A DNA stretch of 64,000 nt. It comes from Longimicrobiales bacterium (GTDB lineage Bacteria > Gemmatimonadota > Gemmatimonadetes > Longimicrobiales > Gaopeijiaceae). The position numbers and the translations under genes were made by a program. Shown one piece after another: positions 21,357 through 42,171 of the stretch (its first letter is position 1; every line of letters starts with the position of its first letter). The notes beneath the pieces are model-generated. The model worked only from the letters and a program-made list of their open reading frames with translations, ran no database searches and was not told the DNA's origin. Where the stretch lies: NCBI GenBank assembly GCA_963664435.2, contig CAXXKM010000002.1:224001-288000 (forward strand). The letters are read 5' to 3'.

Positions 21357-21762
21357 AGGGAAGAACTTCTCAAAGGGAGCCGGGACGAGTTCGGAGTGTT
21401 GAACTCGGACCGGCGGCGAGGTTCCGAGCCGGATCGAGGCTCGCCGGAACCTGGAGCGCGCGTCGAGACCCGCGGGCTCGGCCTGATCGGCCGGGTTCGC
21501 GGGCTTGCCATTTGCCGGCGACGGATGTGCGTGGCCCCGGTTGGTCCTCCGGTCCCGGATCAGCCCGGCTCTTCCCGGGGGACGGGTGTCCATGCCGGGA
21601 TCCTGACAATTCCCTTGCACCCGGATCGTTGAGCGCGGCTGCCTGACCGGTACCTTCAGAGTATGGTAAAGGACCGCATGATGACCCGCCGGCGTCGGAT
21701 GGTCACGTGTGACGAGTGTGCGTTTGCCGACATTGGTGTTGGCGGGGATGGGGGGCAGTCAG

Positions 21763-24657: not shown

Positions 24658-24707
24658 TTGGTCCGCGGGTGAACCGCGCGAGCAGGCGCGGGGCTGGCTG
24701 GGTCACG

Positions 24708-24737
24708 GATTACGTAATTTACGTATTTTATGTAATC
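24708..24737. repeat. AT-rich triple 9-bp tandem repeat with dyad symmetry (candidate operator)
   Basis: TTACGTAAT/TTACGTATT/TTATGTAAT at 24710-24736. GATTACGTAA...TTATGTAATC is an inverted pair with 1 mismatch. Confidence 0.6.
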
Positions 24738-25019
24738 TGCTCGATCCAGCGCCGAGGCATCGCCGTTCAAATGCCGGGGGGAGAGTTCACCTGCGGGCTG
24801 GCGGTGCATTGGAGATGGCCAGCCGCACTGGGCGCGGCGCCCCTGGCACGGTCGAGGTCGCGGTTCACGGAAACCCACGCTGTCCGCGTTGCGTGCTCTG
24901 CGCGCATGGCATAGCCTTGCGGAAGTTTCAGGCTCGTCACGTCCGAGGGTCCTCGTGCGTGGCGGCCCGCACCCATTGAAGACGCAGCGCACACCACGTC
25001 ACACGGAGCAAGAGCGCAA

Positions 25020-26642
25020 ATGCGAGCAATCCGAGTCCTGGCCCTGGTCCTGATGACGGCAGGAGCTCCCTTGTGGGTGGCGACCTGCGGCGGTGACGGC
25101 GGTACGGAACCGACCCCTACCACCCCTCCCACGCCTCCCCCACCCCCGCCACCCGCGAATCGCGCGCCGACCGCCACGGGCAGCATAGATGCCCAGACGG
25201 TCGTCGCCGGGGAGAGCGTTTCGGTCAATGTGGCCGGAAACTTCACCGACCCGGACGGCAACACGCTGTCCTTCTCGGCGGCGAGCTCCGACGACGCGGT
25301 CGCCACGGCTTCGGTTTCGGGGAGCAACGTGACCATCAACGGCGTCGCGGCAGGAACCGCGACCGTGACCGTGACGGCAAGCGACCCGGGCGGACTGTCC
25401 GCGACCCAGAGCATCAGCGTGACGGTCGAAGCCGTCAACCAGGCGCCCGTGGGAGAGGGCATCATCGACGACCAGGGTATGGTCGTGGGCGATGAGGTTA
25501 CCGTGGACGTGACCGACAACTTCAGCGACCCGGACGGCGACGAACTGACCTACGCCGCCACCAGCTCGGATACGGCCGTGGCGACCGTCGCGACCGAGGG
25601 TGCGATGGTGACCATCACGGCCGTGGCCGCGGGGAGCGCCACCATCACCGTGACCGCCACCGATCCGGGCGAGCTCTCGGCCAGCCAGGAGTTCGGCGTG
25701 ACCGTCGAGGAATCCAACGAGGCACCCGTGGCGGAAGGCGCCATCGACGACGTGACCGTGGTCGCGGGCAGCGAGGCGACGGTGGACGTGACGGACAACT
25801 TCCGCGATCCGGACGGTGACGACCTGACCTACGCCGCGACCAGCTCGGATGAGGCGGTGGCAACCGTCTCCACCGAGGGTGCCGTGGTGACCGTCATGGG
25901 CATCGGGCCGGGCGACGCCACCGTGACCGTGACCGCCTCGGACGCGGGCATGCTTTCGGCCAGCCTGGAGTTCGGCGTGACCGTCACGCCGCCCCCGGTC
26001 CCACCCGAGATCACCGACACGATCCCGACGCACGACATGATCGTGGACAGCATGGTGGTGCTCGACGTGTCGTCGTACTTCGAGGACGCCGAGCTGACCT
26101 ACATGGCCACGACCTCGGACGAGACGGTGGCGTCGACATCCGTGGACGGCAGCACGGTGACCACGACGGGCACGGGCGCCGTCGAGGACAGCATCAGCGT
26201 GGCGATGCTGGCGGTCACGGCCACGAACGAGGACGGGTTGTCGGTCACCCAGGACTCGATCATGGTGCGGGTGCACCAGGAGGCGTATGACAGCCTGCCG
26301 GGGATCACGGTGAGAGAGGACGGCGTTCTGCTTGCCGAGGTAGTCGGAACGACCACCCCGCTCACCATCTGCCTCCAGGTTCGCAACTTCCCGGTCGCCG
26401 GAACCAGTTTCACCGTGTTCTGGTCGGAGTGGCAGCGCGCGGTGGGCAGCGGCTGGGTCGTCGCCCAGGACAACAACAAGGCCCACGTAACCGCCGGCGA
26501 GGGTCTGGGAGGCTCGGTCTGTCCGATCAATATCCTCGAAGACGCGTTTCCGCCGGGCATCTACCGTCTCGTCGGCTTTGTGATGCTCGGCGAGGAGACC
26601 GGGTACTACAAGACCAACACCTTCGAGAAGCGGCAGCCGTAG
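25020..26642 (+). CDS. Lipoprotein with tandem cadherin/Ig-like repeats
   Basis: Lipobox-like VATC, Pro-rich linker, three 93-aa repeats (NxAP at 25158, 25437, 25716) with NFxDPDG motifs, a degenerate fourth repeat and a unique C-terminal domain. Confidence 0.85.
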   Translation: MRAIRVLALVLMTAGAPLWVATCGGDGGTEPTPTTPPTPPPPPPPANRAPTATGSIDAQTVVAGESVSVNVAGNFTDPDGNTLSFSAASSDDAVATASVSGSNVTINGVAAGTATVTVTASDPGGLSATQSISVTVEAVNQAPVGEGIIDDQGMVVGDEVTVDVTDNFSDPDGDELTYAATSSDTAVATVATEGAMVTITAVAAGSATITVTATDPGELSASQEFGVTVEESNEAPVAEGAIDDVTVVAGSEATVDVTDNFRDPDGDDLTYAATSSDEAVATVSTEGAVVTVMGIGPGDATVTVTASDAGMLSASLEFGVTVTPPPVPPEITDTIPTHDMIVDSMVVLDVSSYFEDAELTYMATTSDETVASTSVDGSTVTTTGTGAVEDSISVAMLAVTATNEDGLSVTQDSIMVRVHQEAYDSLPGITVREDGVLLAEVVGTTTPLTICLQVRNFPVAGTSFTVFWSEWQRAVGSGWVVAQDNNKAHVTAGEGLGGSVCPINILEDAFPPGIYRLVGFVMLGEETGYYKTNTFEKRQP

Positions 26643-26746
26643 CCCAGATGTGACCGCTCCCGGTCCTGCCGGATCTCTCTGACGCGCCACAGGTCGCGTT
26701 TCGGCGCCGTCGCTCGTTGAAGAGACGGGGGCGCCGAAGCGTGATT

Positions 26747-29700
26747 TCAATCACTCACCGGCGGCGGATCCTCTTCCTCCTCCTCTTCCGGCGGCCGCGG
26801 GCGATTCATGCGCAGCGTGACCCCTCCGAAGAAGGTGGAGCCTGAGCGCTCGACCTTGTGGTCGCCCTCGTACAGGTAGTCGAGGATGGCCTGGTCCCAC
26901 GAGAGCCCTGCCTTCGCGACCAGCTCCATCCACGGGCCGTACGCAGTTTCGTCGGGCGCCTCGGTGGTGCCGCTCCAGATGGTGACCCGCGGGTTGTAGC
27001 CGCCCCCGCCCCCTCCCGATGATCCCTTGAGGGGCATCTGGATCAGGACGCTGTCGGTCATGGGCAGGCGGAAGACGTCCGTGTCGAAGTCGGCGCCGTA
27101 GCGCTGGTAGCGGGCGTAGGTGCGCTGGTTCATCTCGAAGACATCGCGGTTCGAATTGATGCCCCGGGTGATGTAGTCGCGCAGCTGGAAGGCGGCGTCC
27201 CGGTGCCGCGGGAACTCCGGGTTGTCGATGTAGCCGAATCCCGGCATGAACCAGCCCTTGTTGAATCCCCAGTTGCGCTCGGTTACGCGCCCGCGGCGCA
27301 CGAGCCCCGTGTATTCCGAGAAGAGCTGCACCACCTGGTGCGAGGGATAGCCGTGCGGGTTCAGGAAGATGTCGGGCAGCCACGCCTCCCAGAGCCGGCC
27401 GCGCACCTTCGATTCCGGGTAGATGGGATGGTCGTCGCCCGAGCCCGAACTGACGTCGATGCCGAGCGAACCCAGGTAGCCCGCGTGCAGGATGTAGTCG
27501 GGGGTGGAGCGGTACAGGTCGTACGCCAGCTGGGCGCCGTCCGGGTTGGTGAAGGGATGGATGATGACGTTCACGCGGTCCAGCTTCGGGCGCTGCTCCG
27601 GGTCGGTGAGGAGCAGCTCGGCGTGGCGCAGCACGTGGCTTGTGGAGGACACCTCGTTGGCGTGCTGGCGCGCGGAATAGATGACGGTCGGCTTGTACGT
27701 GGTGGCCTTGGCGCGGGACCAGTGTGAGGCGGTGATCGCCGGCATCAGGTCCATCGCCCAGGTGGTCTTGCCCAGGTAGGACTCACCGACCTGGTAGACG
27801 TGCGCCTCCTCGAAGGTCGCCCCCATCTGCGCCAGGATGCGATGGCCCTCCGGCGGCGGCATGGGCGTATCCCACTGCACGAGGCGCTCGCCCGAGTAGC
27901 TCCAGCCCTCGGGGAGGAGCGCGCGCCAGTCCGGTAGCGGGGCGGGCGTGCCATTGGCCGCAAGATGGATGGTGCGGCGGGACTCGGGGTCCTCTTCATG
28001 CGTCCATTCGGCGTGCACCTCCAGCGATCCCAGACCCGGGAACGCCAGCGCCGATGCGTACATGCCGCGGTCGCGCATGGCCTCGATGTGCCCGAGGGTC
28101 GCCTCGACCTGCTCGGCCGAGAGCATGCGCTCGTCGACCTGCAGGGGCTGGGCGTAGGCGAGCAGACTGTCGCGCATGTCGGCTTCGGTGTCGACGCGCA
28201 CGCGCAGGGCGAGGTGCGAGAGGCCGGGCGTGCCCTCGCGCACGTGTGCTTCGCGCGCGGAGGGGCGCTCCATGGTGATGCGCGGGATGTCCAGGCGCAC
28301 CTCGCCGGTCTCGCCGGAGCGGTCGCGATATCGGACGACCACCGCTGGCCGCGAGGTGGCGAACCCCGAGAGGGAGATGTTGGCGGTTCCCGCCGTACCG
28401 TCCGATTTGGGCGTCATCAAGGGGATGACGCGGCCGGGGAAGGTGAGCCCCTGCCCCCGCGAGTTGCGGCCGATCAGGTCGAAGAACTCGATGGTGCCGA
28501 AATACACCTCCTCGTGGAGGGCATCCATGGTGGAGTGGATCTCGTTGTCGATCTCCAGGCGGTAGTCGGGCTCGCTCAGCTGGACCTCGGCCACCAGCTC
28601 ACCGAAGAACGGGGCATCCGCGTTTCCGCCCCGCGGGATGCCCTCGTGGCGCTCCATGACGTAGTCGTAGACGGCCGGCAGGATGGTCTCCTGGTAGTAG
28701 TCCCAGAACGCCTCCGGGTCGGTGACGATGCGTTCGTCCGCCAGGACGCGGTCCGCGGCGCGCGCCTCGATCCAGCCGGTGGTGACGCGCACGTGCTCGT
28801 AGTCGCGGAAGCGGTCGACGTACGGGCGCATCACCCACTTGGGGTCGAAGGTCTCGGTGAGGAATACATCGCCGGACGGATCGGTCACTTCGACTTCGTA
28901 GGTCGGGCCCTCCAGCACCTCCTCGAAGCGGATCCGTTCCAGGTCGATGCCCAGGTCGCGCGCCAGCACTTCGTCGATGGGGAAGATCTCGTGCAGCCAG
29001 CGCACCGGCGTGTGGATGGCCTGCTGGGGCCACTCCTCGGGCGGGTCGTTGCGCCGGAAACGGATGAGAATTTCGCCGATTTCGGCGCCCTCCAGTTGCG
29101 GGCGCACGCCCTCGTACAGCCAGTAGTAGCCCTGTTTGAAGGCCGAGCGTACTTCGACGACGGTCGCTTCCGGGTCGGCGCCGCGCTCGAGGAGGGCGCT
29201 CCGCACCTCTTCCTCCAGCCGGCGGCGCACCTCCGGCGGCTCGCTCAGGCGGGCGTGGACGGTGACCGGCTCCCCGGATGCGACGGCCGGGAGCACGTCT
29301 TCGTCGACGATGGCGCGGAAGCGCTCCACCTCGGAGGGCAGCGTGATGGACTCGGAGAAGATGGAGGCTGCGTTCTGCACGTCGCGGTCGTCGACCGTCA
29401 CGTTGATCTCGCCGGCGCCCAGGGCGGCCGCGCGCTCGCGGACGAGGTCGGAGAGGCCGGGATCGGGCTTCTCCACGGAGATCAGCACTTCGGCGGCGGC
29501 CAGGTCGCGGCCGCCGAGATCTGCCAGGATGCGGTCGAGCTTGTAGAGGCCGATGGCCGCCTGACCCGCGGGGGAGCGGCCGGAGAGCGCACTCCAGAGT
29601 GCCTGCTCCACATCGTCGAGGGTGGGGCGGTCGTCGCCCCGGGCATCCAGGTGGGGGAGGGTGAGGGCAAGGTGGTCGAGGGCGCGGCGCGCTCCCGCGG

Positions 29701-31300
29701 GGTCCCCACCGGTCACCACCAGCGAAGGCTTGCTGCCGAAGGCGTCGGGCACGAGTTGGATGAGTCCCTCCCCGGGCTGGAGGCCGGCCAGGTCGACCCT
29801 GCCGCTGTCGGCGAGCTGCTCCGTGAGCGGGTTGTCGGTGCCGGCCAGCACCAGGGTGGGACGGGAGGCGGGGCGGTCCAGGCCGGCGGCGGGCTCCACC
29901 AGCGGCACCACCAGCCCGGTCGCCTCCAGCCCGAGGCGGGCGGCAAGGTCGGGCAGCGCCTCCACCGCGGCCGCGCCCGGGGCGAGCAGGGCGTCGATCC
30001 GGTCGGGAATCTCGTTGTTGTCGGAGTCGCCCAGCAGGCCGTCGGGGGTGTACAGGTTGGACAGGTCGAGCGACCCCTTCGCGCCGCTGCCCGGTCGACC
30101 CGCGACCGGTCCGGGCGCGTCCGGGGCGGCCCGGCCCGGGATACGCACCACTGGACCGGAGGCAAGGCGCACCTCCACCGAGCCCAGGCCGGGATAGGCG
30201 AACGGGTCGTCCGACTGTTCCGGTGCATCGGCCGCCTGCGGGTCGTCCTGCCCGGCGGGGTCCGCCCCGGGGTCAGCCGGGCCGGCGGGTTCCGTCGCGG
30301 CCGGCGTGTCCTGCCCGGTGGCGGCGTCCTGCCCGGTCGTGGTCGGGACGTCCTCTCCGGCGGCGAGCGCGCGCAGCACCCCGGCCGCCTCCTCGACATC
30401 GGCCACCGCCACCCGCACGTTCGCGATCAGGCGGTTCACCCCGTCCGATCCGGCGCGCGCCCGGGCCTGCCAGAGCCGGACCTCCTCCACCTCCACCCCC
30501 GACGCTTCCAGCGCGTCGCGCACGTCGTCGCCCGCGGCCGACAGCAGCGGCGCGGACAGGGTGCGCGTGTGCGGCAGCGCGCCCGCGAACATGCGGGCCG
30601 CCGCCACCAGCCCCTCGTCATCCCCACCCACCACCACCACCCAGCGCCGGCCGTCCGCCTCGCGCACCACCACCGCCCCCTCATCCGCATCGAGCGAGGC
30701 CGGATCGACCCCCGGCGAATCCAGCCCCGACGCGGCCAGGCCACCCCGGCCCACCACGACCAGCACCCCTTCCGCCTCCGTGCCGCGAGCCAGCGGCAGG
30801 TCCAGCGCCATGGTCTCGAAGCCCAGGCGGGCCGCAATCTCGGCGGCTGCGCGCGTCTCGCCCGGCGTCGGCGCCTCTCCCGTCACCAGCGAGGCGTTGA
30901 CAAAGTCCGGCACCTCGTCGCCGTTGGTATCCAGGACGAGGCCGCCGACCTCGAAAAGCGTGGTCAGGTCACCAGGAGTGGAGACGGCCGGAGCTGCCTG
31001 GGAGGCCCCGGGCGCGGGCACCAGCGCCCACAACGCCAACGCGGCCATGGCCGACAGCCACGCCGCCAATGCCGGAGGTCGCGAGAAACCCGCGATGCGT
31101 CCTGCGTCCACACCTGAACGTCTACGGCCGGCCGCTCGTGGGCCGTGGGTCGCCAGCCCTCCAGCGTCGGGCGCGTCACGTCCCTCGTCGCCCGCCGCTG
31201 AACCGCGGTACGCCGGCCCCACAACCTCCGTCGCAACCTTCAGCCTGCTCCGGCCCGCCCCGAACCGCGCGCGGAGCGCCTCCGGCCGGAGCGCGCTCAC
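26747..31300 (-). CDS. Very large M14-family zinc carboxypeptidase-domain protein
   Basis: C-terminal ARQHANE, NPDG and LNPHGYP motifs. GTG at 31300 overlaps the cstA stop (GTGA); alternative ATG at 31048. Signal-like segment and a duplicated N-terminal module. Confidence 0.8.
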   Translation of the reverse strand: MSALRPEALRARFGAGRSRLKVATEVVGPAYRGSAAGDEGRDAPDAGGLATHGPRAAGRRRSGVDAGRIAGFSRPPALAAWLSAMAALALWALVPAPGASQAAPAVSTPGDLTTLFEVGGLVLDTNGDEVPDFVNASLVTGEAPTPGETRAAAEIAARLGFETMALDLPLARGTEAEGVLVVVGRGGLAASGLDSPGVDPASLDADEGAVVVREADGRRWVVVVGGDDEGLVAAARMFAGALPHTRTLSAPLLSAAGDDVRDALEASGVEVEEVRLWQARARAGSDGVNRLIANVRVAVADVEEAAGVLRALAAGEDVPTTTGQDAATGQDTPAATEPAGPADPGADPAGQDDPQAADAPEQSDDPFAYPGLGSVEVRLASGPVVRIPGRAAPDAPGPVAGRPGSGAKGSLDLSNLYTPDGLLGDSDNNEIPDRIDALLAPGAAAVEALPDLAARLGLEATGLVVPLVEPAAGLDRPASRPTLVLAGTDNPLTEQLADSGRVDLAGLQPGEGLIQLVPDAFGSKPSLVVTGGDPAGARRALDHLALTLPHLDARGDDRPTLDDVEQALWSALSGRSPAGQAAIGLYKLDRILADLGGRDLAAAEVLISVEKPDPGLSDLVRERAAALGAGEINVTVDDRDVQNAASIFSESITLPSEVERFRAIVDEDVLPAVASGEPVTVHARLSEPPEVRRRLEEEVRSALLERGADPEATVVEVRSAFKQGYYWLYEGVRPQLEGAEIGEILIRFRRNDPPEEWPQQAIHTPVRWLHEIFPIDEVLARDLGIDLERIRFEEVLEGPTYEVEVTDPSGDVFLTETFDPKWVMRPYVDRFRDYEHVRVTTGWIEARAADRVLADERIVTDPEAFWDYYQETILPAVYDYVMERHEGIPRGGNADAPFFGELVAEVQLSEPDYRLEIDNEIHSTMDALHEEVYFGTIEFFDLIGRNSRGQGLTFPGRVIPLMTPKSDGTAGTANISLSGFATSRPAVVVRYRDRSGETGEVRLDIPRITMERPSAREAHVREGTPGLSHLALRVRVDTEADMRDSLLAYAQPLQVDERMLSAEQVEATLGHIEAMRDRGMYASALAFPGLGSLEVHAEWTHEEDPESRRTIHLAANGTPAPLPDWRALLPEGWSYSGERLVQWDTPMPPPEGHRILAQMGATFEEAHVYQVGESYLGKTTWAMDLMPAITASHWSRAKATTYKPTVIYSARQHANEVSSTSHVLRHAELLLTDPEQRPKLDRVNVIIHPFTNPDGAQLAYDLYRSTPDYILHAGYLGSLGIDVSSGSGDDHPIYPESKVRGRLWEAWLPDIFLNPHGYPSHQVVQLFSEYTGLVRRGRVTERNWGFNKGWFMPGFGYIDNPEFPRHRDAAFQLRDYITRGINSNRDVFEMNQRTYARYQRYGADFDTDVFRLPMTDSVLIQMPLKGSSGGGGGGYNPRVTIWSGTTEAPDETAYGPWMELVAKAGLSWDQAILDYLYEGDHKVERSGSTFFGGVTLRMNRPRPPEEEEEEDPPPVSD

Positions 31301-33075
31301 GAACCGTGACGCGCCGGAGCCCCCGGTCCGCCCGCGGCAATCGCCATCCGGATCGCCGCCAGCGCCTCGAACACGAGCCACAGCACCAGCACGAAGATCA
31401 GGCCCCCGACCCCGAACAGGAGCCAGGTCTCGCTGGTCCAGTAGCCGATCATGTTGATGACCATGGCCCACGTCGTCATCACGAGCAGGAAGCTCAGCGG
31501 CACGACCGTCACCCAGATCCTCCGCTTCAGGCTGAAGAGGAAGAGGCTGATGACAAGAAGGCTCATCGCCCCCGTGAGCTGATTGGTGGTGCCGAAGAGC
31601 GGCCAGAGGCGCATGCCCCCCGCGCCCCGGTCCACACCCAGCGCCAGCAGGGCGCAGCTGGAAACCGCGAGCGTCGTCGCGATCCAGCGATTCTGCGCGA
31701 ACTTGATCTTGTACTCGGCTCCCAGCTCGGAGATGATGTAGCGCTGCAGCCGAACCCCGGTGTCCATGGTGGTCGCCGCAAAGCTGATGACGACCACCGC
31801 CGCGAAGGTGACCGCGAGCCCCTGCGGAATGCCGATCCCCTGCGCCAGGAATCCCACGCCCTGCACGAACGCCTGGGTCGCACCCGCCGAAGCCGACGCG
31901 AACGACCCGTAGTGATCGTGCCAGCCGTCCACCCCCACCACGACCGCGAAACCGGCGGTGGTGGCGAGAATCGCGGTGAGCGCCAGCGATCCCTCGCCGA
32001 TCGCGCCTCCGTATCCCACGTAGCGCGCGTCCGTCTCCTTGTCGAGCTGTTTGGACGACGTCCCCGACGACACCAGCCCGTGGAAGCCGCTGATCGCCCC
32101 ACAGGCGATGGTCACGAAGAGGAGCGGGAACCAGTTGGGGGTATCGGGCGGCAGATTCGTGTTGATCGCGGGCGCCACCACCGGGGCGTTGGTAAAGATG
32201 ATGCCGAGCCCGATGATGCCGAGCGCCACGAACAGCTGGTGGCTGTTGACGTAGTCGCGGGGCTGGAGCAGCAGCCAGACCGGCAGCACGCTGGCGAAGA
32301 AGGCGTAGACGAAGAGGACGATGACCCAGCCCGCGCGCACGCCGTCGGTGGTCGCCGCCGCCGCCGCGGCGGCCTGATCGCCCCCGCTGGCCGCTATCTG
32401 GGCAGCCGTGGGCGCGAAGCCGAAGAAGTCGGGCAGCTGGAGCGGGACCGACTGGCCCACCCAGATGAGGAAATAGAGCACCGCCAGCGCTCCGAGCGAC
32501 GGCAGCAGCAGCCCGGCGCCCGACCGGTAGATGAGGAAGCCCACCGTGATCGCGACCACAAGGCTGCCCCAGACGGGAAGCACCGCCCCCGGGTTGCCGA
32601 TGAACAGGTTGGAGATGACGACGGCGAATACCGCGTTCACCAGCAGCAGCAGGAAGAAGATCACCAGCATGAAGAGCACCCGGCCCCGGTCCCCCACGAT
32701 CTTGCCTGCCAGCGTCCCGATGGAGTTCGCCTTGTGCCGGGTCGAGATCCACAGCGTGCCGAAGTCATGCACCGCGCCCGCGAAGATGGTGCCCAGCACC
32801 ACCCACAGGAACGCGGGCAGCCACCCCCAGATGACCGCGATCGCCGGGCCCACGATGGGTGCGGCTCCCGCAACGGAGGTGAAATGGTGACCGAAGAGCA
32901 CGTTGCGGTTGGTGGGCAGGAAGTCCACCCCGTCCTCGAACTCGTGCGCCGGCGTGCGGAAGTCGGGGTCGAGCCGGTAGATCTTCTGGGCGACGTACCG
33001 GGAATAGACCCGGTATCCGGTGGCGAACGCGGCCAATCCGATCAGTAGGAGTACGATTGAACTCACGGAAGCCAT
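31297..33075 (-). CDS. cstA: Carbon starvation protein A (CstA) family transporter
   Basis: TPAHEFEDGVDF, LFGHHFTSVAGAAPIVGP, LLQPRDY, IACGAISGFH and LWPLFGTTNQL motifs. Confidence 0.95.
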   Translation of the reverse strand: MASVSSIVLLLIGLAAFATGYRVYSRYVAQKIYRLDPDFRTPAHEFEDGVDFLPTNRNVLFGHHFTSVAGAAPIVGPAIAVIWGWLPAFLWVVLGTIFAGAVHDFGTLWISTRHKANSIGTLAGKIVGDRGRVLFMLVIFFLLLLVNAVFAVVISNLFIGNPGAVLPVWGSLVVAITVGFLIYRSGAGLLLPSLGALAVLYFLIWVGQSVPLQLPDFFGFAPTAAQIAASGGDQAAAAAAATTDGVRAGWVIVLFVYAFFASVLPVWLLLQPRDYVNSHQLFVALGIIGLGIIFTNAPVVAPAINTNLPPDTPNWFPLLFVTIACGAISGFHGLVSSGTSSKQLDKETDARYVGYGGAIGEGSLALTAILATTAGFAVVVGVDGWHDHYGSFASASAGATQAFVQGVGFLAQGIGIPQGLAVTFAAVVVISFAATTMDTGVRLQRYIISELGAEYKIKFAQNRWIATTLAVSSCALLALGVDRGAGGMRLWPLFGTTNQLTGAMSLLVISLFLFSLKRRIWVTVVPLSFLLVMTTWAMVINMIGYWTSETWLLFGVGGLIFVLVLWLVFEALAAIRMAIAAGGPGAPARHGS

Positions 33076-33132
33076 CCTTTGCTGAGGGAACGATGCGGCT
33101 TCGCCAGCCTGCCGACGCGCGGAACGGTCAGT

Positions 33133-34110
33133 TTACGTCGCGCGCTCCGACCTCGGCAACGCCCCGGCCAGACGTTCCAGCGCCCCCAGCCCATGCAGCC
33201 GGCCCTCGAACAGAGGAATGGCGTGCACCGGATATCCGGAGAAACTCCTGCGCACCCGATCGGCGTATTCCCGCTGGCGGTCGCGCCGGGCCCCCAGCAA
33301 CGTCCCGTCCGCGTCCTCAGGCACCACCTGGTTCAGGAAGATGGCCGCGACCGGGATCCCGTACTTGTCGAGCATCTTCACCGAACGCTCCGTCTCCGCG
33401 ACGGGCAGATGCTCCGGCGTGACCACGAAGACGAAGCCGGTGCGGTGCGGGTCCGTGATCAGGGCGCGTGCATGGCGGAAGCGGGCCCGGCGTTCGGTGA
33501 GCGCGCCGAGCACCGGATCCTCAGCGGGATCCTCGGAGCCCGCCGCCGCGCCCGCCACGTTGCGCCACATGCGCCCGAGCACGTTGACCTTCCTGCGCCG
33601 CGAGATGAGCCCGCTGATCCATGTGTCCATCAGCTCCGGCAGCGAGAGCAGCCGTAGCGTGTGGCCTAGCGGGGCGGTGTCGAAGATCAGGCGGTCCCAG
33701 CTGTCGCGGGCCTCCTCGGCGATGCGCGTGAACCGGTCGAACAGCGCGGCTTCCTCGGCCCCGGGGGTCACGCGCGCGATGTCGATCTGGCGCTCGACCT
33801 CCGCCATCAGGCGCGGTGGCGTGCTGTCGGCGATGCGCGCCTTCACGTCGTCGATGTAGCGGTCGGCTTCCTCCGCGGGATCGATCTCGAGCGCCCACAG
33901 CCGCGGGCGAACCTCCCGCGCCTCCCCGCCCAGCCTGGTCTCGAGCACGTCCGACGTCGAGTGCGCGGGATCCGTCGAGACCAGCAGGGTGCGGTGCCCC
34001 TCGCGCGCGGCCTCGAGGGCCATGGTGGCGGCCAGGGTGGTCTTGCCGACCCCGCCCTTGCCGCCGAAGAAGACGACCTCCCGGTCGAGAATGCGGCGCG
34101 GCCTGGCCAT
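33133..34110 (-). CDS. Single-domain ArsA/Get3 family ATPase
   Basis: GKGGVGKTT, STDPAHS and DTAPLGH motifs. No cysteines in the translation. Confidence 0.92.
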   Translation of the reverse strand: MARPRRILDREVVFFGGKGGVGKTTLAATMALEAAREGHRTLLVSTDPAHSTSDVLETRLGGEAREVRPRLWALEIDPAEEADRYIDDVKARIADSTPPRLMAEVERQIDIARVTPGAEEAALFDRFTRIAEEARDSWDRLIFDTAPLGHTLRLLSLPELMDTWISGLISRRRKVNVLGRMWRNVAGAAAGSEDPAEDPVLGALTERRARFRHARALITDPHRTGFVFVVTPEHLPVAETERSVKMLDKYGIPVAAIFLNQVVPEDADGTLLGARRDRQREYADRVRRSFSGYPVHAIPLFEGRLHGLGALERLAGALPRSERAT

Positions 34111-34191
34111 CAGCGTGGAGCCGGAGCGGGCCTCACCGGCGATTCGTTCCGCGGGCCGCGCGGGGTCCCGGCTTCAACCGCGGGCCCGGTC

Positions 34192-34512
34192 TCAGCAGCA
34201 CCTGAATCCGCCGTCCGGCGGACGGGGCATGCCGATGCGCCGGTGCCACTGGTGGAATTCCTCGATCACGTCGGGATAGATCTCGAGGGCGTAGAAGGCC
34301 ACCGGGTTCGGGGCTCCCAGCAGGTCTGCAAACCCCAGGAGCAGGAAAGTGTCGCGCTCTTCGCGGTACGCTCGATAGATCTGGGACCGGTAGGGCGCGA
34401 AGTAGATGCCCTCGTAGATCTCGCCCGCGGCCCGCAGGCCCTTCCTCACGCGCCGGATGGCCTTCCGGATCCGGGACGCCAGCCGACCCTCCCTACCCGG
34501 CATCGTATTCAT
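34192..34512 (-). CDS. Small protein ending in Cys-Cys (resembles the 'cory-CC-star' family)
   Basis: APYR...LGAPNPVAFYALEIYP...FHQWHRRIG...GFRCC-stop, next to ArsA-like and CstA genes. Confidence 0.78.
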   Translation of the reverse strand: MNTMPGREGRLASRIRKAIRRVRKGLRAAGEIYEGIYFAPYRSQIYRAYREERDTFLLLGFADLLGAPNPVAFYALEIYPDVIEEFHQWHRRIGMPRPPDGGFRCC

Positions 34513-34885
34513 CCTCCGTCACCGGATCTCCCCAGCTCGTCACCGCGTTCACGTTGAGCGCGATGTGGGTCATGGCTCCGCCGGGCGCGGCGCCGTGCCA
34601 GTGGTTCTCGCCGGGCTCCACGACGATGAGGTCTCCCGGCCCGGCTTCCCCGACGGGCTCGCCTTCCTTCTGGTATCGGCAACGGCCCTCCACGATGTAG
34701 AGCATCTGATGACCGCTGTGCGTGTGCCAGTTGGTGCGCGAGCGGGCCTCGAAGTGGACGCGGTAGACGTTCACCCGGGGATCGGCGGGGAGGGCGCCCT
34801 CGATGCGGCGCAAGCTCCCGGGGCCGGTGAAGTTGACCGGATCCGAGGATTCGCGCTCCAGGGTCTCAAGGGGGAAGACGTTCAT
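34493..34885 (-). CDS. Cupin domain protein
   Basis: NFTG, RTNWHTH.GHQ.L and PGENHWHGA motifs. Confidence 0.88.
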   Translation of the reverse strand: MNVFPLETLERESSDPVNFTGPGSLRRIEGALPADPRVNVYRVHFEARSRTNWHTHSGHQMLYIVEGRCRYQKEGEPVGEAGPGDLIVVEPGENHWHGAAPGGAMTHIALNVNAVTSWGDPVTEDEYDAG

Positions 34886-35060
34886 CTTTGCAGTCTCGCC
34901 GTTTTGCGGTTTGGAGAGGTGTTGCCGCGTGCCCATGATCGCGCCTGCCGCGTGCATTGGCCAGTGGACTCCCGTGACGAGGCTCAACATATTTCCGGGC
35001 TGAAGCAAGTGGATTCCGGAGCCGAAGCAGGAATCACGCAGTCGACCGTCTCGCAGAACA

Positions 35061-36053
<993 letters not shown>

Positions 36054-36054
36054 G

Positions 36055-36987
36055 GTGAACCGGCCGGTCGCTCCATCGGGCCCGGATGTCGACCGCATTA
36101 TCCGGGCGGCGCTGGCCGAAGACCTCGGGGACGCGGGCGACATCACCAGCCGGGCGGTGATCCCGCGGGGCGCGCGCACGAGCGCGGCGCTGGTCGCGCG
36201 CGAGGCGGGGGTGGTGGCCGGCCTGCCGGTCGCCGCGCGCGTGTTCGCGCTGGTGAACCCGGAAGTGGCGACCGAACCGCTGTGCAGGGACGGGAGCGCG
36301 GTGACCGGAGGCAGCGTCCTGGCCCGCATCCACGGATCGGCGAGGGATGTGCTGGCCGCTGAGCGGACCGCCCTCAACTTCCTGGGACACCTGAGCGGCA
36401 TCGCCACCCGCACCGCCCGTTTCGTGACGGCCGTCGCGGGAACGCGCGCCCGCATCCTCGACACGCGCAAGACCACGCCCGGGCTGCGCGCGCTGGAGAA
36501 GTACGCGGTGCGCGCCGGCGGCGGAGCCAACCACCGCATCGGCCTATACGACGCGGTGCTGATCAAGGACAACCACATCGCGGTCGCGGGGAGCGTCGCC
36601 CGAGCCGTGAAGGCGGCCCGCGCCGGGACCGGCACAGCCATCGAAGTGGAAGTCGAGACGTGCGGCCAGGCACGAGAAGCGGTGGAGGCGGGCGCGGATA
36701 TCATCCTCCTGGACAACATGGACCCTGCGACCATGCGTGAAGCGGTGCGCCTCATCGACGGAAGAGCCCTCACCGAGGCATCCGGGGGCATCGACCTGGA
36801 ACGTGTGCGCCAGGTGGCCGGGACGGGGGTGGACCGGATCTCCGCGGGGGCGCTGACCTATGGCGTTCCGCGCCTGAACGTCGCCCTCGATTTCGAGAGC
36901 GCCGGCCCCGACGCCAGCCCTGACCTCGACGACGCCGGCCCCGACCTCGACAGCGCCGGCCCCGACCTCGTGAACGCCGCCCCGTGA
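36055..36987 (+). CDS. nadC: Nicotinate-nucleotide pyrophosphorylase NadC
   Basis: EDLG..GDITS, ERTALN, DTRKTTPG, NHR.GL.D, LIKDNH, LLDNM and EASGG motifs. Confidence 0.97.
   Translation: MNRPVAPSGPDVDRIIRAALAEDLGDAGDITSRAVIPRGARTSAALVAREAGVVAGLPVAARVFALVNPEVATEPLCRDGSAVTGGSVLARIHGSARDVLAAERTALNFLGHLSGIATRTARFVTAVAGTRARILDTRKTTPGLRALEKYAVRAGGGANHRIGLYDAVLIKDNHIAVAGSVARAVKAARAGTGTAIEVEVETCGQAREAVEAGADIILLDNMDPATMREAVRLIDGRALTEASGGIDLERVRQVAGTGVDRISAGALTYGVPRLNVALDFESAGPDASPDLDDAGPDLDSAGPDLVNAAP
36901..36975 (+). repeat. 21-bp tandem repeat in the nadC 3' end (AGPDLDx)
   Basis: Units at 36913, 36934 and 36955 (GCCGGCCCCGACCTCGAC...), plus a partial unit at 36901. Confidence 0.8.
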
Positions 36988-37826
36988 GTCCGCCGGACGC
37001 GACTCCGCGCGAATTGCGCCGCCTTCACGACGAAGCTTCGCGCAACCGCGAGACCTTCTACCTCGATCCCGAGACCGGCCTGGCCGTCTTCACCGAATTC
37101 GGCCTGCGCCAGCGGGGCAGTTGCTGCTGGAGCGGCTGCCGCCATTGCCCCTACGAAGCTGAGCGGGCAGACACCGTGGAGGGCGGCCCGGCCGCGGAGC
37201 CTCCGCGGTGGCTCACCTCCCTGCGCCCTGCGCCCGAGCCCGTCGACGTGCTCTTCTGGAGCGGCGGCAAGGACAGTTTTCTCGGCTACCGGGCCCTGGC
37301 GCGCGAGGGGGCCCGTCCCGTCGTCCTCCTGACGACCTTCGACGCGGCCAGCCGGACGATCGCGCACCAGGAGCTGCGGGTGGACTTGGTGATCCGGCAG
37401 GCCGAGCACCTGCAGGCGCCCCTGCTGGGCGTTCCCCTTCATCCCGGCCTCGCCTACGAAGCACGCATAGCCGAGGCCGTCGCGTCGATCCCGGCGATCG
37501 CGCGTTTCGTCTTCGGCGATCTGCACCTCGAGCACATTCGCGAGTGGCGCACGGGGGCGTTCCGGGAGCTCGCGGAGAGCCGCGGCGCATCGCTACATTT
37601 CCCCATCTGGCAGGTGCCCTACGAGGCGCTGATGGCGGATCTGGAGGCCAGCGGCATCGTCTGCGAAGTGTCCGCCGTTACCGATGCGGCGCTGGGCGCG
37701 CTCGTCCCCGGCCAGCGCTTCGACCGACAGGTGATGTCGCGGCTCCCCGACGGCGTGGACCGCTTCGGCGAGAACGGGGAGTTTCACACCCTTGCAAAGG
37801 TGTGGGAGGTGGTCGACCTCCCTTGA
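36984..37826 (+). CDS. Fusion of Cys-rich DUF5522-like domain and PP-loop (diphthine-ammonia ligase/MJ0570-like) ATPase
   Basis: N-terminal FYLDPETG..VFT...RGSCCWSGCRHCPY; then WSGGKDS, FGDLHLEHIREWR and GENGEFHT. Confidence 0.8.
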   Translation: MSPPDATPRELRRLHDEASRNRETFYLDPETGLAVFTEFGLRQRGSCCWSGCRHCPYEAERADTVEGGPAAEPPRWLTSLRPAPEPVDVLFWSGGKDSFLGYRALAREGARPVVLLTTFDAASRTIAHQELRVDLVIRQAEHLQAPLLGVPLHPGLAYEARIAEAVASIPAIARFVFGDLHLEHIREWRTGAFRELAESRGASLHFPIWQVPYEALMADLEASGIVCEVSAVTDAALGALVPGQRFDRQVMSRLPDGVDRFGENGEFHTLAKVWEVVDLP

Positions 37827-37884
37827 CAGCCTTGGGCGAGCAGTGCCACTCTGTGATTGGGTGTCATACTTCATACTTGGTGAT

Positions 37885-38124
37885 ATGATGCGCACGACCA
37901 TCTCCCTTCCCGACAGCCTCGCCAACCTCGCCCGAAGCGAGGCCCGGCGGCGAGGTGTGAGTTTTTCCGCCCTCGTCCGTCTTTCCCTTGAGCGGCATTT
38001 GTGCCGATCAGCCGGAGACAGGCTGCCCTGGCAAGGCATCATCGCGGACTCCTCATACGCCGCGCGCGACCTCGATCGAGCGATGGCGGCCCGATGGCCT
38101 GACGATGTTGCTGGCGATCGTTGA
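37885..38124 (+). CDS. vapB: VapB-like ribbon-helix-helix antitoxin
   Basis: MRTTISLPD...ARRRGVSFSALVR, overlapping the PIN gene. Confidence 0.8.
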   Translation: MMRTTISLPDSLANLARSEARRRGVSFSALVRLSLERHLCRSAGDRLPWQGIIADSSYAARDLDRAMAARWPDDVAGDR

Positions 38125-38515
38125 CAGCGGACCACTCCTGGCAAGCGCGAACTCCGCCGATCCCGATCACGCGGCTTGCGTGGAAGCGCTGACCGAGTCC
38201 GGCGTCGATCTCGTCATCCCGGCTCTCTGCGTCGCGGAAGTCGCGTGGTTCCTCGGACGCCGCCACGGGGCTCAAGCGGAAAGCCGGTTCGTGGACGCCC
38301 TGTCCAGGTTCACGGTCCTGGCCCCTGACGCGAAAGATTGGCCCCGCATTGCCGGCCTCGTCCGCCAATACGCGGATCTTCCACTCGGAACCACGGACGC
38401 TTCAGTCGCGGTGCTAGCCGAAAGGCTCGCGACGACGCGGATCATTACGCTCGACAGGAGGCACTTTTCGGTGCTGCGCAACGCGCGCGGGCAAGCGTTC
38501 GATCTTCGCCCCTGA
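38105..38515 (+). CDS. vapC: VapC PIN-domain toxin
   Basis: [21 protein letters not shown] and TLDRRHF motifs. Confidence 0.9.
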
Positions 38516-38548
38516 GTTGGGCGGGTTCGATCTGATCCGGACCCGTTC

Positions 38549-41500
38549 TCACTTCCGCGCCAGGCGAAGCGCGTCCTCCTGCAACACCTCGTCGAGGTGG
38601 CTCGCGAGCCGGTCGGCGTCGTCTTCGTCGAAGACCAGCGGCGGCTTGATCTTCACCACGTTGTGGAGCGGGCCGTCGGTGCTGAGCAGGATGCCGCGGT
38701 CGCGCATGCGCTCGACCAGGTAGCCCGCGTGGCGGGGGGCCGGTTCGAGCGATTCGCGGTCCGTCACCAGCTCGATCCCCTGGAAGAGGCCGGTCCCGCG
38801 CGCGTCTCCCACGATCGGATGGCGTTCCACCAGGCCCTTCAGCCCAGCGAGCAGCCGCTCTCCGACGCGGCGAGCGTGGTCCTGCAGCCCTTCCTCTTCG
38901 ATCACGTCCAGAACCGCCAGGCCGATGCTGCACGACACCGGATTGCCGCCGAAGGTGTTGAAGTACTCCATCCCGTTGTTGAAGGAGTCGGCGATCTCCG
39001 GGGTGGTGACCACGGCGGCGAGCGGATGGCCGTTGCCGATGGGCTTGCCCATGGTGACGATGTCCGGCACCACGCCGTGGTCCTCGAAGGCCCAGAAGGA
39101 CGAGCCGGCCCGCCCGAACCCGACCTGCACCTCGTCGGCGATGCAGACGCCCCCGGCCGCCCGCACGCGCTCGAACGCGTCCCGCAGGAAGCCGTCCGGA
39201 AGCACGATCTGGCCGCCGCAGCTCAGGATCGACTCGAAGAGGAAGCCGGCGGGCCGTCCCCCGAGCGCGTCGATGGCGCGGCCAACCTCCTCCGCGTAGC
39301 GCGCGCCGCAATCGGGATCGGAGGACCGGTAGCGGCCGCGGTAGCCGTCCGGCATGGGGACGCACGCCACCCACGGCGGCGGCCCCGCGCCCCCGGGCCC
39401 GTCGAACTTGTAGGAGCTGAGCTGCACCAGGGAGCTGGTGTTGCCGTGGTACCCACCCTCCAGCACGACCATGCCCTCGCGGCCGGTGTGGGTGCGGGCC
39501 ATGCGCAGCGCCAGCTCGTTGGCCTCGCTCCCGGTGCAGACGAAGAAGCAGACGCCGAGCGGGTCGGGTAGTGTGCCCGCGAGACGCCGGGCGTACTCGG
39601 TGAGGCTGTCGTGCAGGTAGCGGGTGTTGGTGTTGAGCACCGCCATCTGCTCGATGCCAGCCTTCACCACGCGCGGGTGCGCGTGGCCCACCTGCGCGAC
39701 GTTGTTCACGCAGTCCAGGTACGGCTGGCCCCCGTCGTCGAACAGGTAGGCGCCGCTGCCGCGCACCATCTCCAGCGGACGACGGTAGGAGATGGAAAGC
39801 GACGGCCCGAGGAGCTGTCGGCGCGCGCCCAGCAGCTCCGGGGCCGCATTCCTGCCGGCCGGGGTCAGCTCCGGGATCCCCAGCACCAGGTTGGGATCGG
39901 GCGAGAGGCTCAGCCACACCTCGCGCTGGCCGGGGGGCGCCACGCCGGGGAAGTCGCCTTCGCGGCCCAGCAGGTCCGTCATCAGCTGGAAGTGCAGATG
40001 CGGGGCCCAGTCTCCGTTCTCCGGATACGGCCCGATTCTGCCGATTTCGTCTCCGGCGGCGATCTGCTGCCCGGGCTCGAGCCCCGCCAGGGAATCGCGC
40101 GACAGGTGGCCGTAAAGAGTGTACCACGCCCCGACCTCACCGGCGTCGGCTCGCGCGCCTGAGTCGGCCGCCCCCCCGGCTTCTCGCGCGCCTTCTTCGC
40201 GTGCCTCGTGCCGCAGAACGATGGTCGGCCCGTAGTCGAGGTGCGCATCGTTGTCGCGGAAACTGTGCACGGTCGCGGCGAAAGGAGCGTGGACCGGCGT
40301 GCCGGGTTCGGCGAAGAGGTCGATGCCCACATGGACGGTTCGCCGCTCGAGGCCGTCTTCCCCCTGGATGGCGAAGGCGTCGGAATCGTACCACCGGCGC
40401 GCTTCGTCATAGCGTCCGACGCCCACGCCGGCCCCGACGGCGCGCATGTGCCGGAACAGCAGATCGGTCCAGCCGCGCGCATCGAGGTCGCCCGTGGTTC
40501 CGAGCCATCGGCTGCCGACGCTCAGGTCGAAGACGGTGTGCGGACCCTCGGCCAGCGCTCGCGGCAGGACCGGCGCGAAACAGCCCTCGTCACGGCGGCG
40601 CTCGAGCCAGGCGCGCAGCGGCCCTGTCCGCGGACACGCTTCCAGGTTACACGCCTCGCGCAACCGGTAATGGACGAAGTCCGGGTGGAACTCCTCCCCG
40701 CGGTCGAGGCGTTCCAGAAGTTCCCAGACGTGCGTTTCGCTGATGCTCAGATACTCGTTGCCCGGCTCCCGGGCCCGCTGGTAGGCAGCCATGGTCGCGC
40801 TCAGGCAGAGCCGCATCCCGGTGAGCGGAAAGACCGCGGCGATTTCCTCCTCCCCGAGGGAATACTCCTCGTGGAAGCCGCTCACGAGCTGCGCCAGGGC
40901 CCCGACGGGATCGCGCTTGGAAAGCATCGCGTAGGCTCCCGCGACTGCCGGTTCGGAAGCCAGCCAGGTGCGCATGGCATCGCCGAAGTCGATGATGCCG
41001 GTGACGCGCCGATCGCCGTAGCGGCCCCCCGGCGGCGTCTCCTCGGCCCGGTTGGCCAGCACGTTGTAGTCGTTGGCGTCCCCGTGCACCACCTGGGTTC
41101 GAAGGGCCGGGATCAGGGGCGCCAGCCGCTTCTCGCAGTCCGCCATCCTGCGGCGTAGCAATGCCCGGCGGTCCTTCGCCTTCACGGTCCCCACCCGCTC
41201 CTCGAAGATGGCGGACGCGGTGCGCAGGTCCCAGTGGAAGCCGGTCTCGGACGCCGGATGCTCGAAATCGGCGAGCGCGGCGTCCAGGCGGGCCAGCAGG
41301 CCTCCCCAGGAGCGCAACAGCTCCAGACTCTGCGGGCGTACCTCGGCAACCGGCACCCCGGGCAGCCAGGTGACGAGACGGAGGGGGTAGTGGATGCCCT
41401 CCTTCTCGATGGACGAAAGTGTGGCTCCGTCCAGATCCGGAAGAACAGCGGGAAATGGTGATCGCAGCGATTCACTGTCGCGTCCATCGCGCGGCAAGCG

Positions 41501-41857
41501 GGTACGGGGATCCGCCGATGCCGCGATGGAGCCGGCAGCAGGCATGCCGTCACCGACGCCGTCGCGCCGAGCCCATCGCTGCGCCAAGCGGGCGAGAATC
41601 GTGTTTTGCATCGCCAGGGAAGCTTCGTCTTCCTCAGAGTTGGCGATCTTGAGGATGCAGGCTTCGCAGTCAGCGGACTCCCCGCCGGCCAGCAACGGAA
41701 CCCGGTCCTTCGGGTCGACCCGCCCGCCATGCCCGCGCGGGCGCAAGAGGAAGTTCTGGTCCCGCTCGCTGGGGAGTTCCTTGGCGCGGACCGCGAGGCC
41801 GTAGCGTTCGATGGCCAGCGTCTCGGCTCGTTCGGGGGTGAAGCTGGGACGGTTCAT
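38549..41857 (-). CDS. Triple fusion: APH-family (hydroxylysine-kinase-like) + M23-like + class III PLP (phospho-lyase-like) domain
   Basis: [19 protein letters not shown] and IIDFGD; HVGIDL, YGHL and [29 protein letters not shown] and GKPIGNGHP. Confidence 0.88.
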
Positions 41858-42171
41858 GGCTCGCAATGCGGAGTCCGGCTTGCTCCTCGCTGGTTTCGCT
41901 CGCGTGATGTTGGACAGTTCTCGGAATCGAACGCTCCATAGTCGCCTGGCCGGCGTGCGACGGCAAAAAAGAGACGGCGGGATGGGATGCGCCTACTGGA
42001 AAATACCGCCGGCGGGCCGGCGCCGCCTCGGCGCACCTCCGTTACCGCCATGCCGGCTTCCATGCTCAGCCGTCACGCGTGAGTTGATCCGCGTCCACCC
42101 CAAGACCATCTTGGGCGTCATGAAACATCATCAGACGGGAAACCCGACGCGGCGGGGGCCAAGGAAGCGGC

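Follow-up and report, generated by a model that had tools for sequence, protein, structure and literature searches.

What does a Get3-like ATPase do beside a carrier of the CstA family, and why does CstA need a small partner that ends in two cysteines? Both questions, i.e. the role of bacterial Get3 homologues and that of the Cys-Cys-ended protein, meet at one locus of a Longimicrobiales bacterium, within a stretch of 64,000 nucleotides (contig CAXXKM010000002.1 of assembly GCA_963664435.2, positions 224,001 to 288,000; hereafter the window). On its minus strand lie the genes for the small protein CstX (34192..34512), a single-domain ATPase of the Get3/ArsA family (33133..34110) and a short-type CstA-family carrier (31297..33075), with 81 nt between cstX and the ATPase gene and 57 nt between the latter and cstA. 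The reading that we favour, at a probability of roughly 45%, is that a secondary carrier is assembled or switched by an accessory module consisting of CstX and the ATPase, with a reactive tail as an optional addition.

The locus is another copy of a published operon type. Castillo and Saier (2010) catalogued 26 associations of cstA with arsA, 24 of them with a small cstX, reported that these genes co-evolve, and put forward CstX as the link between ATP hydrolysis and transport by CstA (PMC2963123). The operons of their ArsA clusters 14-18 combine CstA, a CstX of about 90 residues and a single-domain ArsA homologue of about 330 residues that lacks the three cysteines of ArsA; likewise, the present locus holds a CstA permease, a 325-residue Cys-less ATPase, a small CstX and no ars genes. 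The initial annotation had thus rightly suspected that the association may be catalogued; a coupling hypothesis, of which it did not know, is in print as well. By context and size, though not by sequence, the CstX of that study presumably equals family NF041419. In haloarchaea, Bacillota, Pseudomonadota and other groups, the same small family is found at the corresponding place, including forms with duplicated cstX and arsA as described there. The main text of PMC2963123 does not mention Gemmatimonas, and the sections covered here do not discuss the Cys-Cys tail, its loss or selenocysteine (Sec) forms. In the literature searched, from which subscription journals were mostly absent, no experimental study of the operon or of a Sec-containing CstX was found.

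A neighbourhood survey, which the initial annotation had recommended, comprised 252 loci (L021-L272, with L273 and L274 dropped as duplicates and L001-L020 excluded for short flanks). These were drawn with chosen queries, from which the best 80 each of 385, 567 and 105 matches were taken, so that proportions among them differ from natural frequencies. The ATPase gene follows cstX directly on its 3' side in 241 of the 252, with a median gap of 24 nt and a gap of at most 300 nt in 234; the remaining 11 are explained by nine contig ends and two broken genes. Since 241 loci keep this order, it does not arise by chance. Of the 169 loci with full flanks, 67 have cstA upstream and 49 downstream, 13 have it on both sides and nine on the opposite strand, and 31 show none. 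A same-strand cstA within about 4 kb accompanies 129 of them, which span archaea and several bacterial phyla, and the three genes are indeed conserved together. Where no cstA was seen near the module, a CstA was found elsewhere in all ten genomes checked, and every module genome checked contains one. In the Bacillota, divergent Cys-less relatives of CstX were detected in 17 of 251 genomes; their genes still have cstA on one side and one or two ATPase genes on the other.

Several variants of this arrangement were observed. The Vicinamibacterales loci L116-L138 (13 with full flanks) hold two CstA paralogues that flank cstX and the ATPase gene; the second paralogue carries Gln at the position of His64 and forms a separate clade. 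Some Bacillota loci (L354-L362, L364-L370) combine one or two divergent cstX genes with two tandem ATPase genes, and in four Bacillota genomes the opposite strand bears an extra cstX-like gene at a distance of about 4 kb. A search for longer forms of CstX, which is a weak test, revealed no natural fusion among 8000 candidates. Four apparent fusions among 142 representatives, namely P0264 and P0346 (CstA followed by CstX) as well as P0375 and P0340 (CstX followed by the ATPase), look like frameshift or chimera artefacts and were not counted.

The module resembles two systems of E. coli, CstA-YbdD and BtsT-YjiX-YjiA, in which a CstA-family carrier is paired with a small protein ending in Arg-Cys-Cys (PF04328) that also has Sec variants. 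The order btsT-yjiX-yjiA had been given correctly in the initial annotation, and the btsT operon likewise includes a P-loop NTPase gene, albeit of a family unlike the Get3-type enzyme found here. In an evenly drawn sample of 201 genomes of the phylum, in which related genomes are not independent, CstX and the ATPase occur in an identical set of 31, CstA in 153 and YbdD/YjiX in 87, with zero overlap between the CstX and the YbdD/YjiX genomes. This split tracks two CstA clades, a short one of about 590 residues as in the window and a long one of about 700 residues to which the E. coli-type CstA belongs. The counts include four genomes flagged as unpublished, on which the conclusions do not depend: G097 belongs to the 31 and also to the 94 of the Cys 474 count below, G057 and G157 belong to the 87, and G182 is the fourth. 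The proposed parallel to the CstA/YbdD architecture holds at the level of a conserved three-part unit. Homology between CstX and YbdD/YjiX was not detected (hhalign probability 2.1% and 1.7%; no Pfam match up to E 10), PF04328 has no match in the source genome, and Sec takes the first position of the pair in CstX versus the second in YbdD-type proteins. In three other loci of the Gemmatimonadota (L331, L332 and L333), a long-type cstA, alone or with ybdD, is followed by a gene for about 830 residues that by eye is of the prolyl-oligopeptidase type; two of these loci have it between cstA and ybdD.

The ATPase (325 residues; PF02374, 2.3e-76) is, judged by its sequence, Get3-like rather than ArsA-like. 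It scores 295 bits against TIGR00345 (cut-off 135) but 145 bits against the ArsA models, whose cut-offs are 650 and 800. Its best single-domain matches in the PDB are the archaeal Get3 structures 3zq6 and 3ug6, to which it aligns over nearly the full length and almost without gaps through the TRC40 insert; both this insert and the hydrophobic groove, which mark Get3/TRC40 proteins, thus appear to be present. The P-loop, switch I and switch II are intact; of 233 complete relatives, 230 retain the first, 230 the second and 232 the third. It differs from the archaeal proteins in having a dedicated partner gene, only three Met in the groove region, and no CxxC zinc clasp, the latter being replaced at residues 269-272. 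With the ArsA-ArsB-ArsD system it shares the superfamily and the DTAP motif. An assignment as the arsenical pump ATPase ArsA was rejected on the basis of its single domain, the missing metalloid-binding cysteines and scores far below the ArsA cut-offs. As the initial annotation had noted, no ars genes are nearby: none was found among the ten neighbouring proteins scanned, with arsB, arsC and acr3 not searched genome-wide. A second ArsA-like gene was not found in the whole genome by tblastn. The translation contains no cysteine, as was also noted there; as a family trait, however, only the absence of CxxC is general (0 of 121 close homologues carry it), while 66 of the 121 are wholly Cys-free. 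No ATPase cysteine is conserved across the CstX tail groups.

The clasp is also missing from some Get3 homologues that bind tail-anchored proteins, such as TkGet3 from Thermococcus, which does so as an oligomer (PMC11170914). The Thermococcus kodakarensis homologue listed in the CstA-linked cluster 14 (PMC2963123) is presumably this same protein. In PMC6593721, bacterial homologues that bear the insert and lack CxxC are called uncharacterised, and binding of hydrophobic sequences by them is considered likely.

CstX comprises 106 residues from the first ATG, but translation probably begins at the second one (34503), for a length of 103 residues, because this codon is preceded by a well-spaced GGAGG and relatives begin with 'MP'. 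The protein scores 98.7 bits against NF041419 (cory-CC-star; curated cut-off 80), its homologues carry PF25952 (DUF7990), and no difference from these families exists at the family level, although Cys-less and Sec-Cys proteins also belong to the wider family. A basic amphipathic N-terminal helix precedes a hydrophobic core (residues about 55-75), an HxWH motif and the terminal pair of cysteines; the end reads GGFRCC-TGA, in line with the GFRCC-stop of the initial annotation. An AlphaFold2 model (predicted local distance difference test, pLDDT, 86) comprises helices at 7-60, 62-65, 72-76 and 79-92 and an extended tail. No fold search gave a specific match: the top Foldseek hit has E 5.2, and the top VIA hit, owed to long helices, has Z 5.5 at a root-mean-square deviation of 9.1. 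This does not imply a new fold. In the ESM Atlas, two of the three best clusters for the family (P0002) are automatically named 'DNA helicase', an apparent mis-annotation.

The tail varies within the family. The GGFRCC end is present in all 120 close homologues among the matches listed and a Cys-Cys end in 83 of 142 distant representatives, whereas the 252 loci divide into 114 with Cys-Cys, three with a single Cys, two with Sec-Cys and 133 with neither Cys nor Sec. The latter include haloarchaea, many Clostridia and Synergistota. The stop codons after Cys-Cys are TGA (60), TAG (39) and TAA (15). HxWH occurs in 95 of the 114 Cys-Cys-type proteins and in none of the other 138. The ATPase partners of Cys-less CstX carry CxxC in two of 122 cases, compared with none of 108 for Cys-Cys-type CstX. 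The pair is probably an optional redox- or metal-sensitive element and not the core of the mechanism.

A search pattern requiring TGA in place of the first Cys codon retrieved four metagenomic loci (L371-L374), each with the candidate gene between cstA and an ATPase gene. All four have a stop immediately after the second Cys, although the pattern had left this position free. Two Acetomicrobium-type loci from another branch also read TGA-Cys-stop (L064:4193-4244 and L065:255-306). Three of the metagenomic loci share with these two a hairpin resembling a selenocysteine insertion sequence, with a GGC loop, a constant distance from the UGA and one compensatory pair in the apical stem; it is absent from L374. 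As a comparison, 86 non-Cys-Cys proteins ending in TAA or TAG were inspected, and none has a Cys-stop after its stop codon. Both genomes that could be checked, those of L064 and L065, contain selA. Hence, six CstX loci from two family branches are probable Sec-Cys forms, in which gene callers shorten the gene (P0265 is two residues short). Exchange between Cys and Sec usually marks redox-active thiols, and the Sec-Cys ends therefore point to a reactive thiol. The cstX of the window is not a selenoprotein gene, since both of its Cys codons are TGC; its source genome does contain tRNA-Sec and selA.

The carrier itself (592 residues) was correctly recognized as CstA from the start (PF02554, 4.2e-144). 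It has about 14 hydrophobic segments by hydropathy, and CstA is predicted to adopt the LeuT fold (PMC10862720). No solved sequence relative was found, the one match being at E 0.18. Against the E. coli pyruvate/proton symporter equivalog NF011590 it reaches 241 bits, with a cut-off of 1188, and the substrate of E. coli CstA can therefore not be transferred. Cys325, His63 and His332 are invariant in 110 of 110 sequences, including the lineages with a Cys-less tail, which retain Cys325. Cys at position 474, in contrast, tracks the group with Cys-Cys and HxWH (42 of 42 versus 0 of 68 in one count; 85 of 94 versus 7 of 78 by pairwise alignment). No residue pattern clearly sets module-linked carriers apart, the differences being limited to three minor positions. 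Ten short CstA loci of the phylum show neither cstX nor the ATPase gene within the stretches fetched; CstX was not found in five of these genomes, in a search without an internal positive control, and their ArsA-family matches are of other types or weak. In a quick tree with some long-branch warnings, these solo carriers interleave with the module-linked ones. A short CstA without the module argues against an obligatory ATP energiser, although incomplete assemblies could hide genes.

In the favoured mechanism, which takes up the option of the initial annotation that the ATPase regulates or assembles CstA, the latter would be a LeuT-fold, ion-coupled carrier, and its substrate a small carboxylate, an amino acid or a peptide, as expected from its family. 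CstX would be a small helical and probably membrane-associated adaptor, and the ATPase a Get3-type dimer whose hydrophobic groove may bind a hydrophobic helix, most plausibly the core of CstX. ATP would then be used to deliver, dock or release CstX on CstA, i.e. for assembly or switching and not to power each transport cycle, while the Cys-Cys tail, replaced by Sec-Cys in some lineages and absent from others, would confer sensitivity to redox state or metals. This reading is suggested by the linkage of cstX with the ATPase gene, their shared 31 of 201 genomes, the distant cstA in ten of ten cases and the likeness to Get3, together with the solo short CstA and the Sec-Cys forms. Relatives point the same way: BtsT is annotated in RefSeq as a pyruvate:H+ symporter, and the CxxC-less TkGet3 binds tail-anchored proteins. 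BtsT alone has reportedly been reconstituted in liposomes, for which no confirmation was found in the literature searched. E. coli CstA, a pyruvate importer, needs YbdD for reasons that PMC5847655 leaves unexplained in the part consulted, and no ATPase is named there.

Several observations weigh against this mechanism. Pairwise distances correlate no better for CstX-ATPase than for CstX-CstA (Spearman 0.78 versus 0.81; partial 0.44 versus 0.52; 76 loci), both contacts are predicted ones, and the weak search for fusions gave no example. The core of CstX is only moderately hydrophobic (best 19-residue hydropathy 1.33; a value of 1.6 is reached by two of 252), which makes it unlike a typical Get3 client. 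The solo-CstA genomes are metagenome-assembled, and the CstX search in them had no internal positive control. Finally, the strict conservation of the ATPase motifs would also fit an energising role.

Such a role is the hypothesis of Castillo and Saier, in which the ATPase energises CstA transport and CstX is the coupling subunit, as in ArsA-ArsB. The initial annotation had likewise considered that the ATPase energises CstA, and the three-way linkage and co-evolution, the intact motifs in 230 to 232 of 233 relatives and the presence of CstA in every module genome checked all agree with it. It is nevertheless weakened by the related short CstA in genomes where CstX and the ATPase were not found, by the lack of a residue pattern, beyond three minor positions, that clearly marks module-linked carriers, by the annotation of characterised family members as H+ symporters and by the likeness of the ATPase to Get3 instead of ArsA; we therefore regard it as unlikely. 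Alternatively, CstX and the ATPase might work as an independent pair on other clients, as chaperones or in membrane targeting, and cstA would be no more than a co-regulated neighbour. Bacterial Get3 homologues have been suggested to be general chaperones (PMC6593721); moreover, of the 169 full-flank loci, 31 show no cstA within about 4 kb and nine have it on the opposite strand. Yet the same-strand cstA in 129 of these loci, a linkage that persists even for the most divergent CstX, and the mutual exclusion of CstX and YbdD in the phylum sample make such a pair very improbable.

Two further explanations assign the central role to the tail. It may be a catalytic redox centre that acts on the substrate or on a cysteine of CstA, e.g. 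the invariant Cys325, during import of a sulfur, selenium or metal-chelated compound. Evidence in its favour comes from the Sec-Cys ends in six loci of two branches, five of which share the hairpin apex and its compensatory pair, from selA in both checkable genomes, from the invariant Cys325, His63 and His332, and from relatives of YbdD/YjiX in Campylobacter that end in Cys-Sec (bioRxiv 10.1101/2022.07.06.499078). However, haloarchaea, many Clostridia and Synergistota retain Cys325 without having the tail, and the type of substrate is conjecture, with E. coli CstA/YbdD importing pyruvate (PMC5847655); this explanation seems more doubtful than the energising role. Less probable again is the mechanism put forward in the initial annotation, according to which the Cys-Cys protein supplies thiol or metal ligands in trans, be it by rebuilding the zinc clasp of Get3 or by an ArsD-like hand-over to the ATPase. 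The GGFRCC ends of the listed close homologues, a possible His2Cys2 site formed with HxWH, and the co-occurrence of CstA Cys474 would suit such ligands, but HxWH and Cys474 are confined to one clade and therefore reflect a single event. Moreover, if Cys-Cys replaced the clasp, CxxC would be expected in the partners of Cys-less CstX, and 120 of the 122 scored lack it as well. Complementarity between CxxC and Cys-Cys was consequently rejected, also given that no ATPase cysteine is conserved across groups, and ligand supply in trans does not hold as a general mechanism. According to Fomenko and Gladyshev, Sec in place of Cys is said to indicate usually redox chemistry and not a structural zinc ligand.

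Around the module, the genes are of local distribution. The run of four genes first described, all on the minus strand and within the same limits, also includes a Cupin_2 protein (34493..34885; 130 residues; PF07883, 1.2e-10; below the NF049940 cut-off), whose gene overlaps cstX. While cstX, the ATPase gene and cstA form the conserved unit, the cupin gene is present in the 15 closest loci (L021-L035) and in none of the others from L001 to L374, and is thus a local neighbour outside the module. The genomes of these 15 are labelled Gemmatimonadota/Longimicrobiales, except that five are labelled Gammaproteobacteria. According to tblastn, all four genes occur in one copy each in the source genome of the window. 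In 13 of the 15 closest loci, and nowhere else in the set, cstA is immediately followed by a gene for a large protein with an M14 zinc-carboxypeptidase domain (26747..31162, start approximate; minus strand; PF00246, 1.9e-11). This protein of about 1,450 residues, with the domain at its C-terminus and a likely signal peptide, is a local neighbour that may supply the substrate.

The cstX and ATPase genes of the window share one frame, and the 81 nt between them contain two TGA codons and a GC-rich hairpin that are not conserved in relatives. Read-through from cstX into the ATPase gene was rejected in view of the two TGA codons and the variable stop codons and spacers of relatives. No Rfam family matched across 24000-42000, and promoter and terminator scans gave results at chance level. 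One sponge metatranscriptome with a small share of matching words (0.07) provided contigs only, mostly of relatives less than 95% alike, and no evidence of expression, co-transcription or habitat. Elsewhere in the window, nadA-nadC and a fusion of DUF5522 with a diphthamide-synthase domain (35061-37826, plus strand) diverge from the cupin gene, followed by a small gene and one that resembles a PIN-domain gene, which by eye form a VapBC-type pair (37792-38515, plus strand), and by an open reading frame of 1105 residues that by eye joins a phosphotransferase to an M23-like segment and to a class III aminotransferase (38549-41866, minus strand). On the other side, an Ig-repeat protein and an outer-membrane beta-barrel protein are encoded (21709-26642, plus strand). 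Outside the window, 17 tRNA genes are arrayed on one strand (G000:C2:689401-692178).

Taken together, the survey narrows the question posed by the locus: the Cys-Cys tail is optional, can be exchanged with Sec-Cys and is no stand-in for the CxxC of the ATPase. A bolder and more tentative version of the assembly or switching model is also conceivable. The Get3-type ATPase might serve CstX as its sole dedicated client, placing it on the LeuT-fold carrier or taking it off and so acting as an ATP-driven on/off switch or assembly factor, redox-gated in the lineages with Cys-Cys or Sec-Cys, while YbdD/YjiX would be an unrelated, convergent solution. If true, this would provide the first physiological client for the widespread bacterial and archaeal Get3 homologues and, in addition, a new selenoprotein branch.

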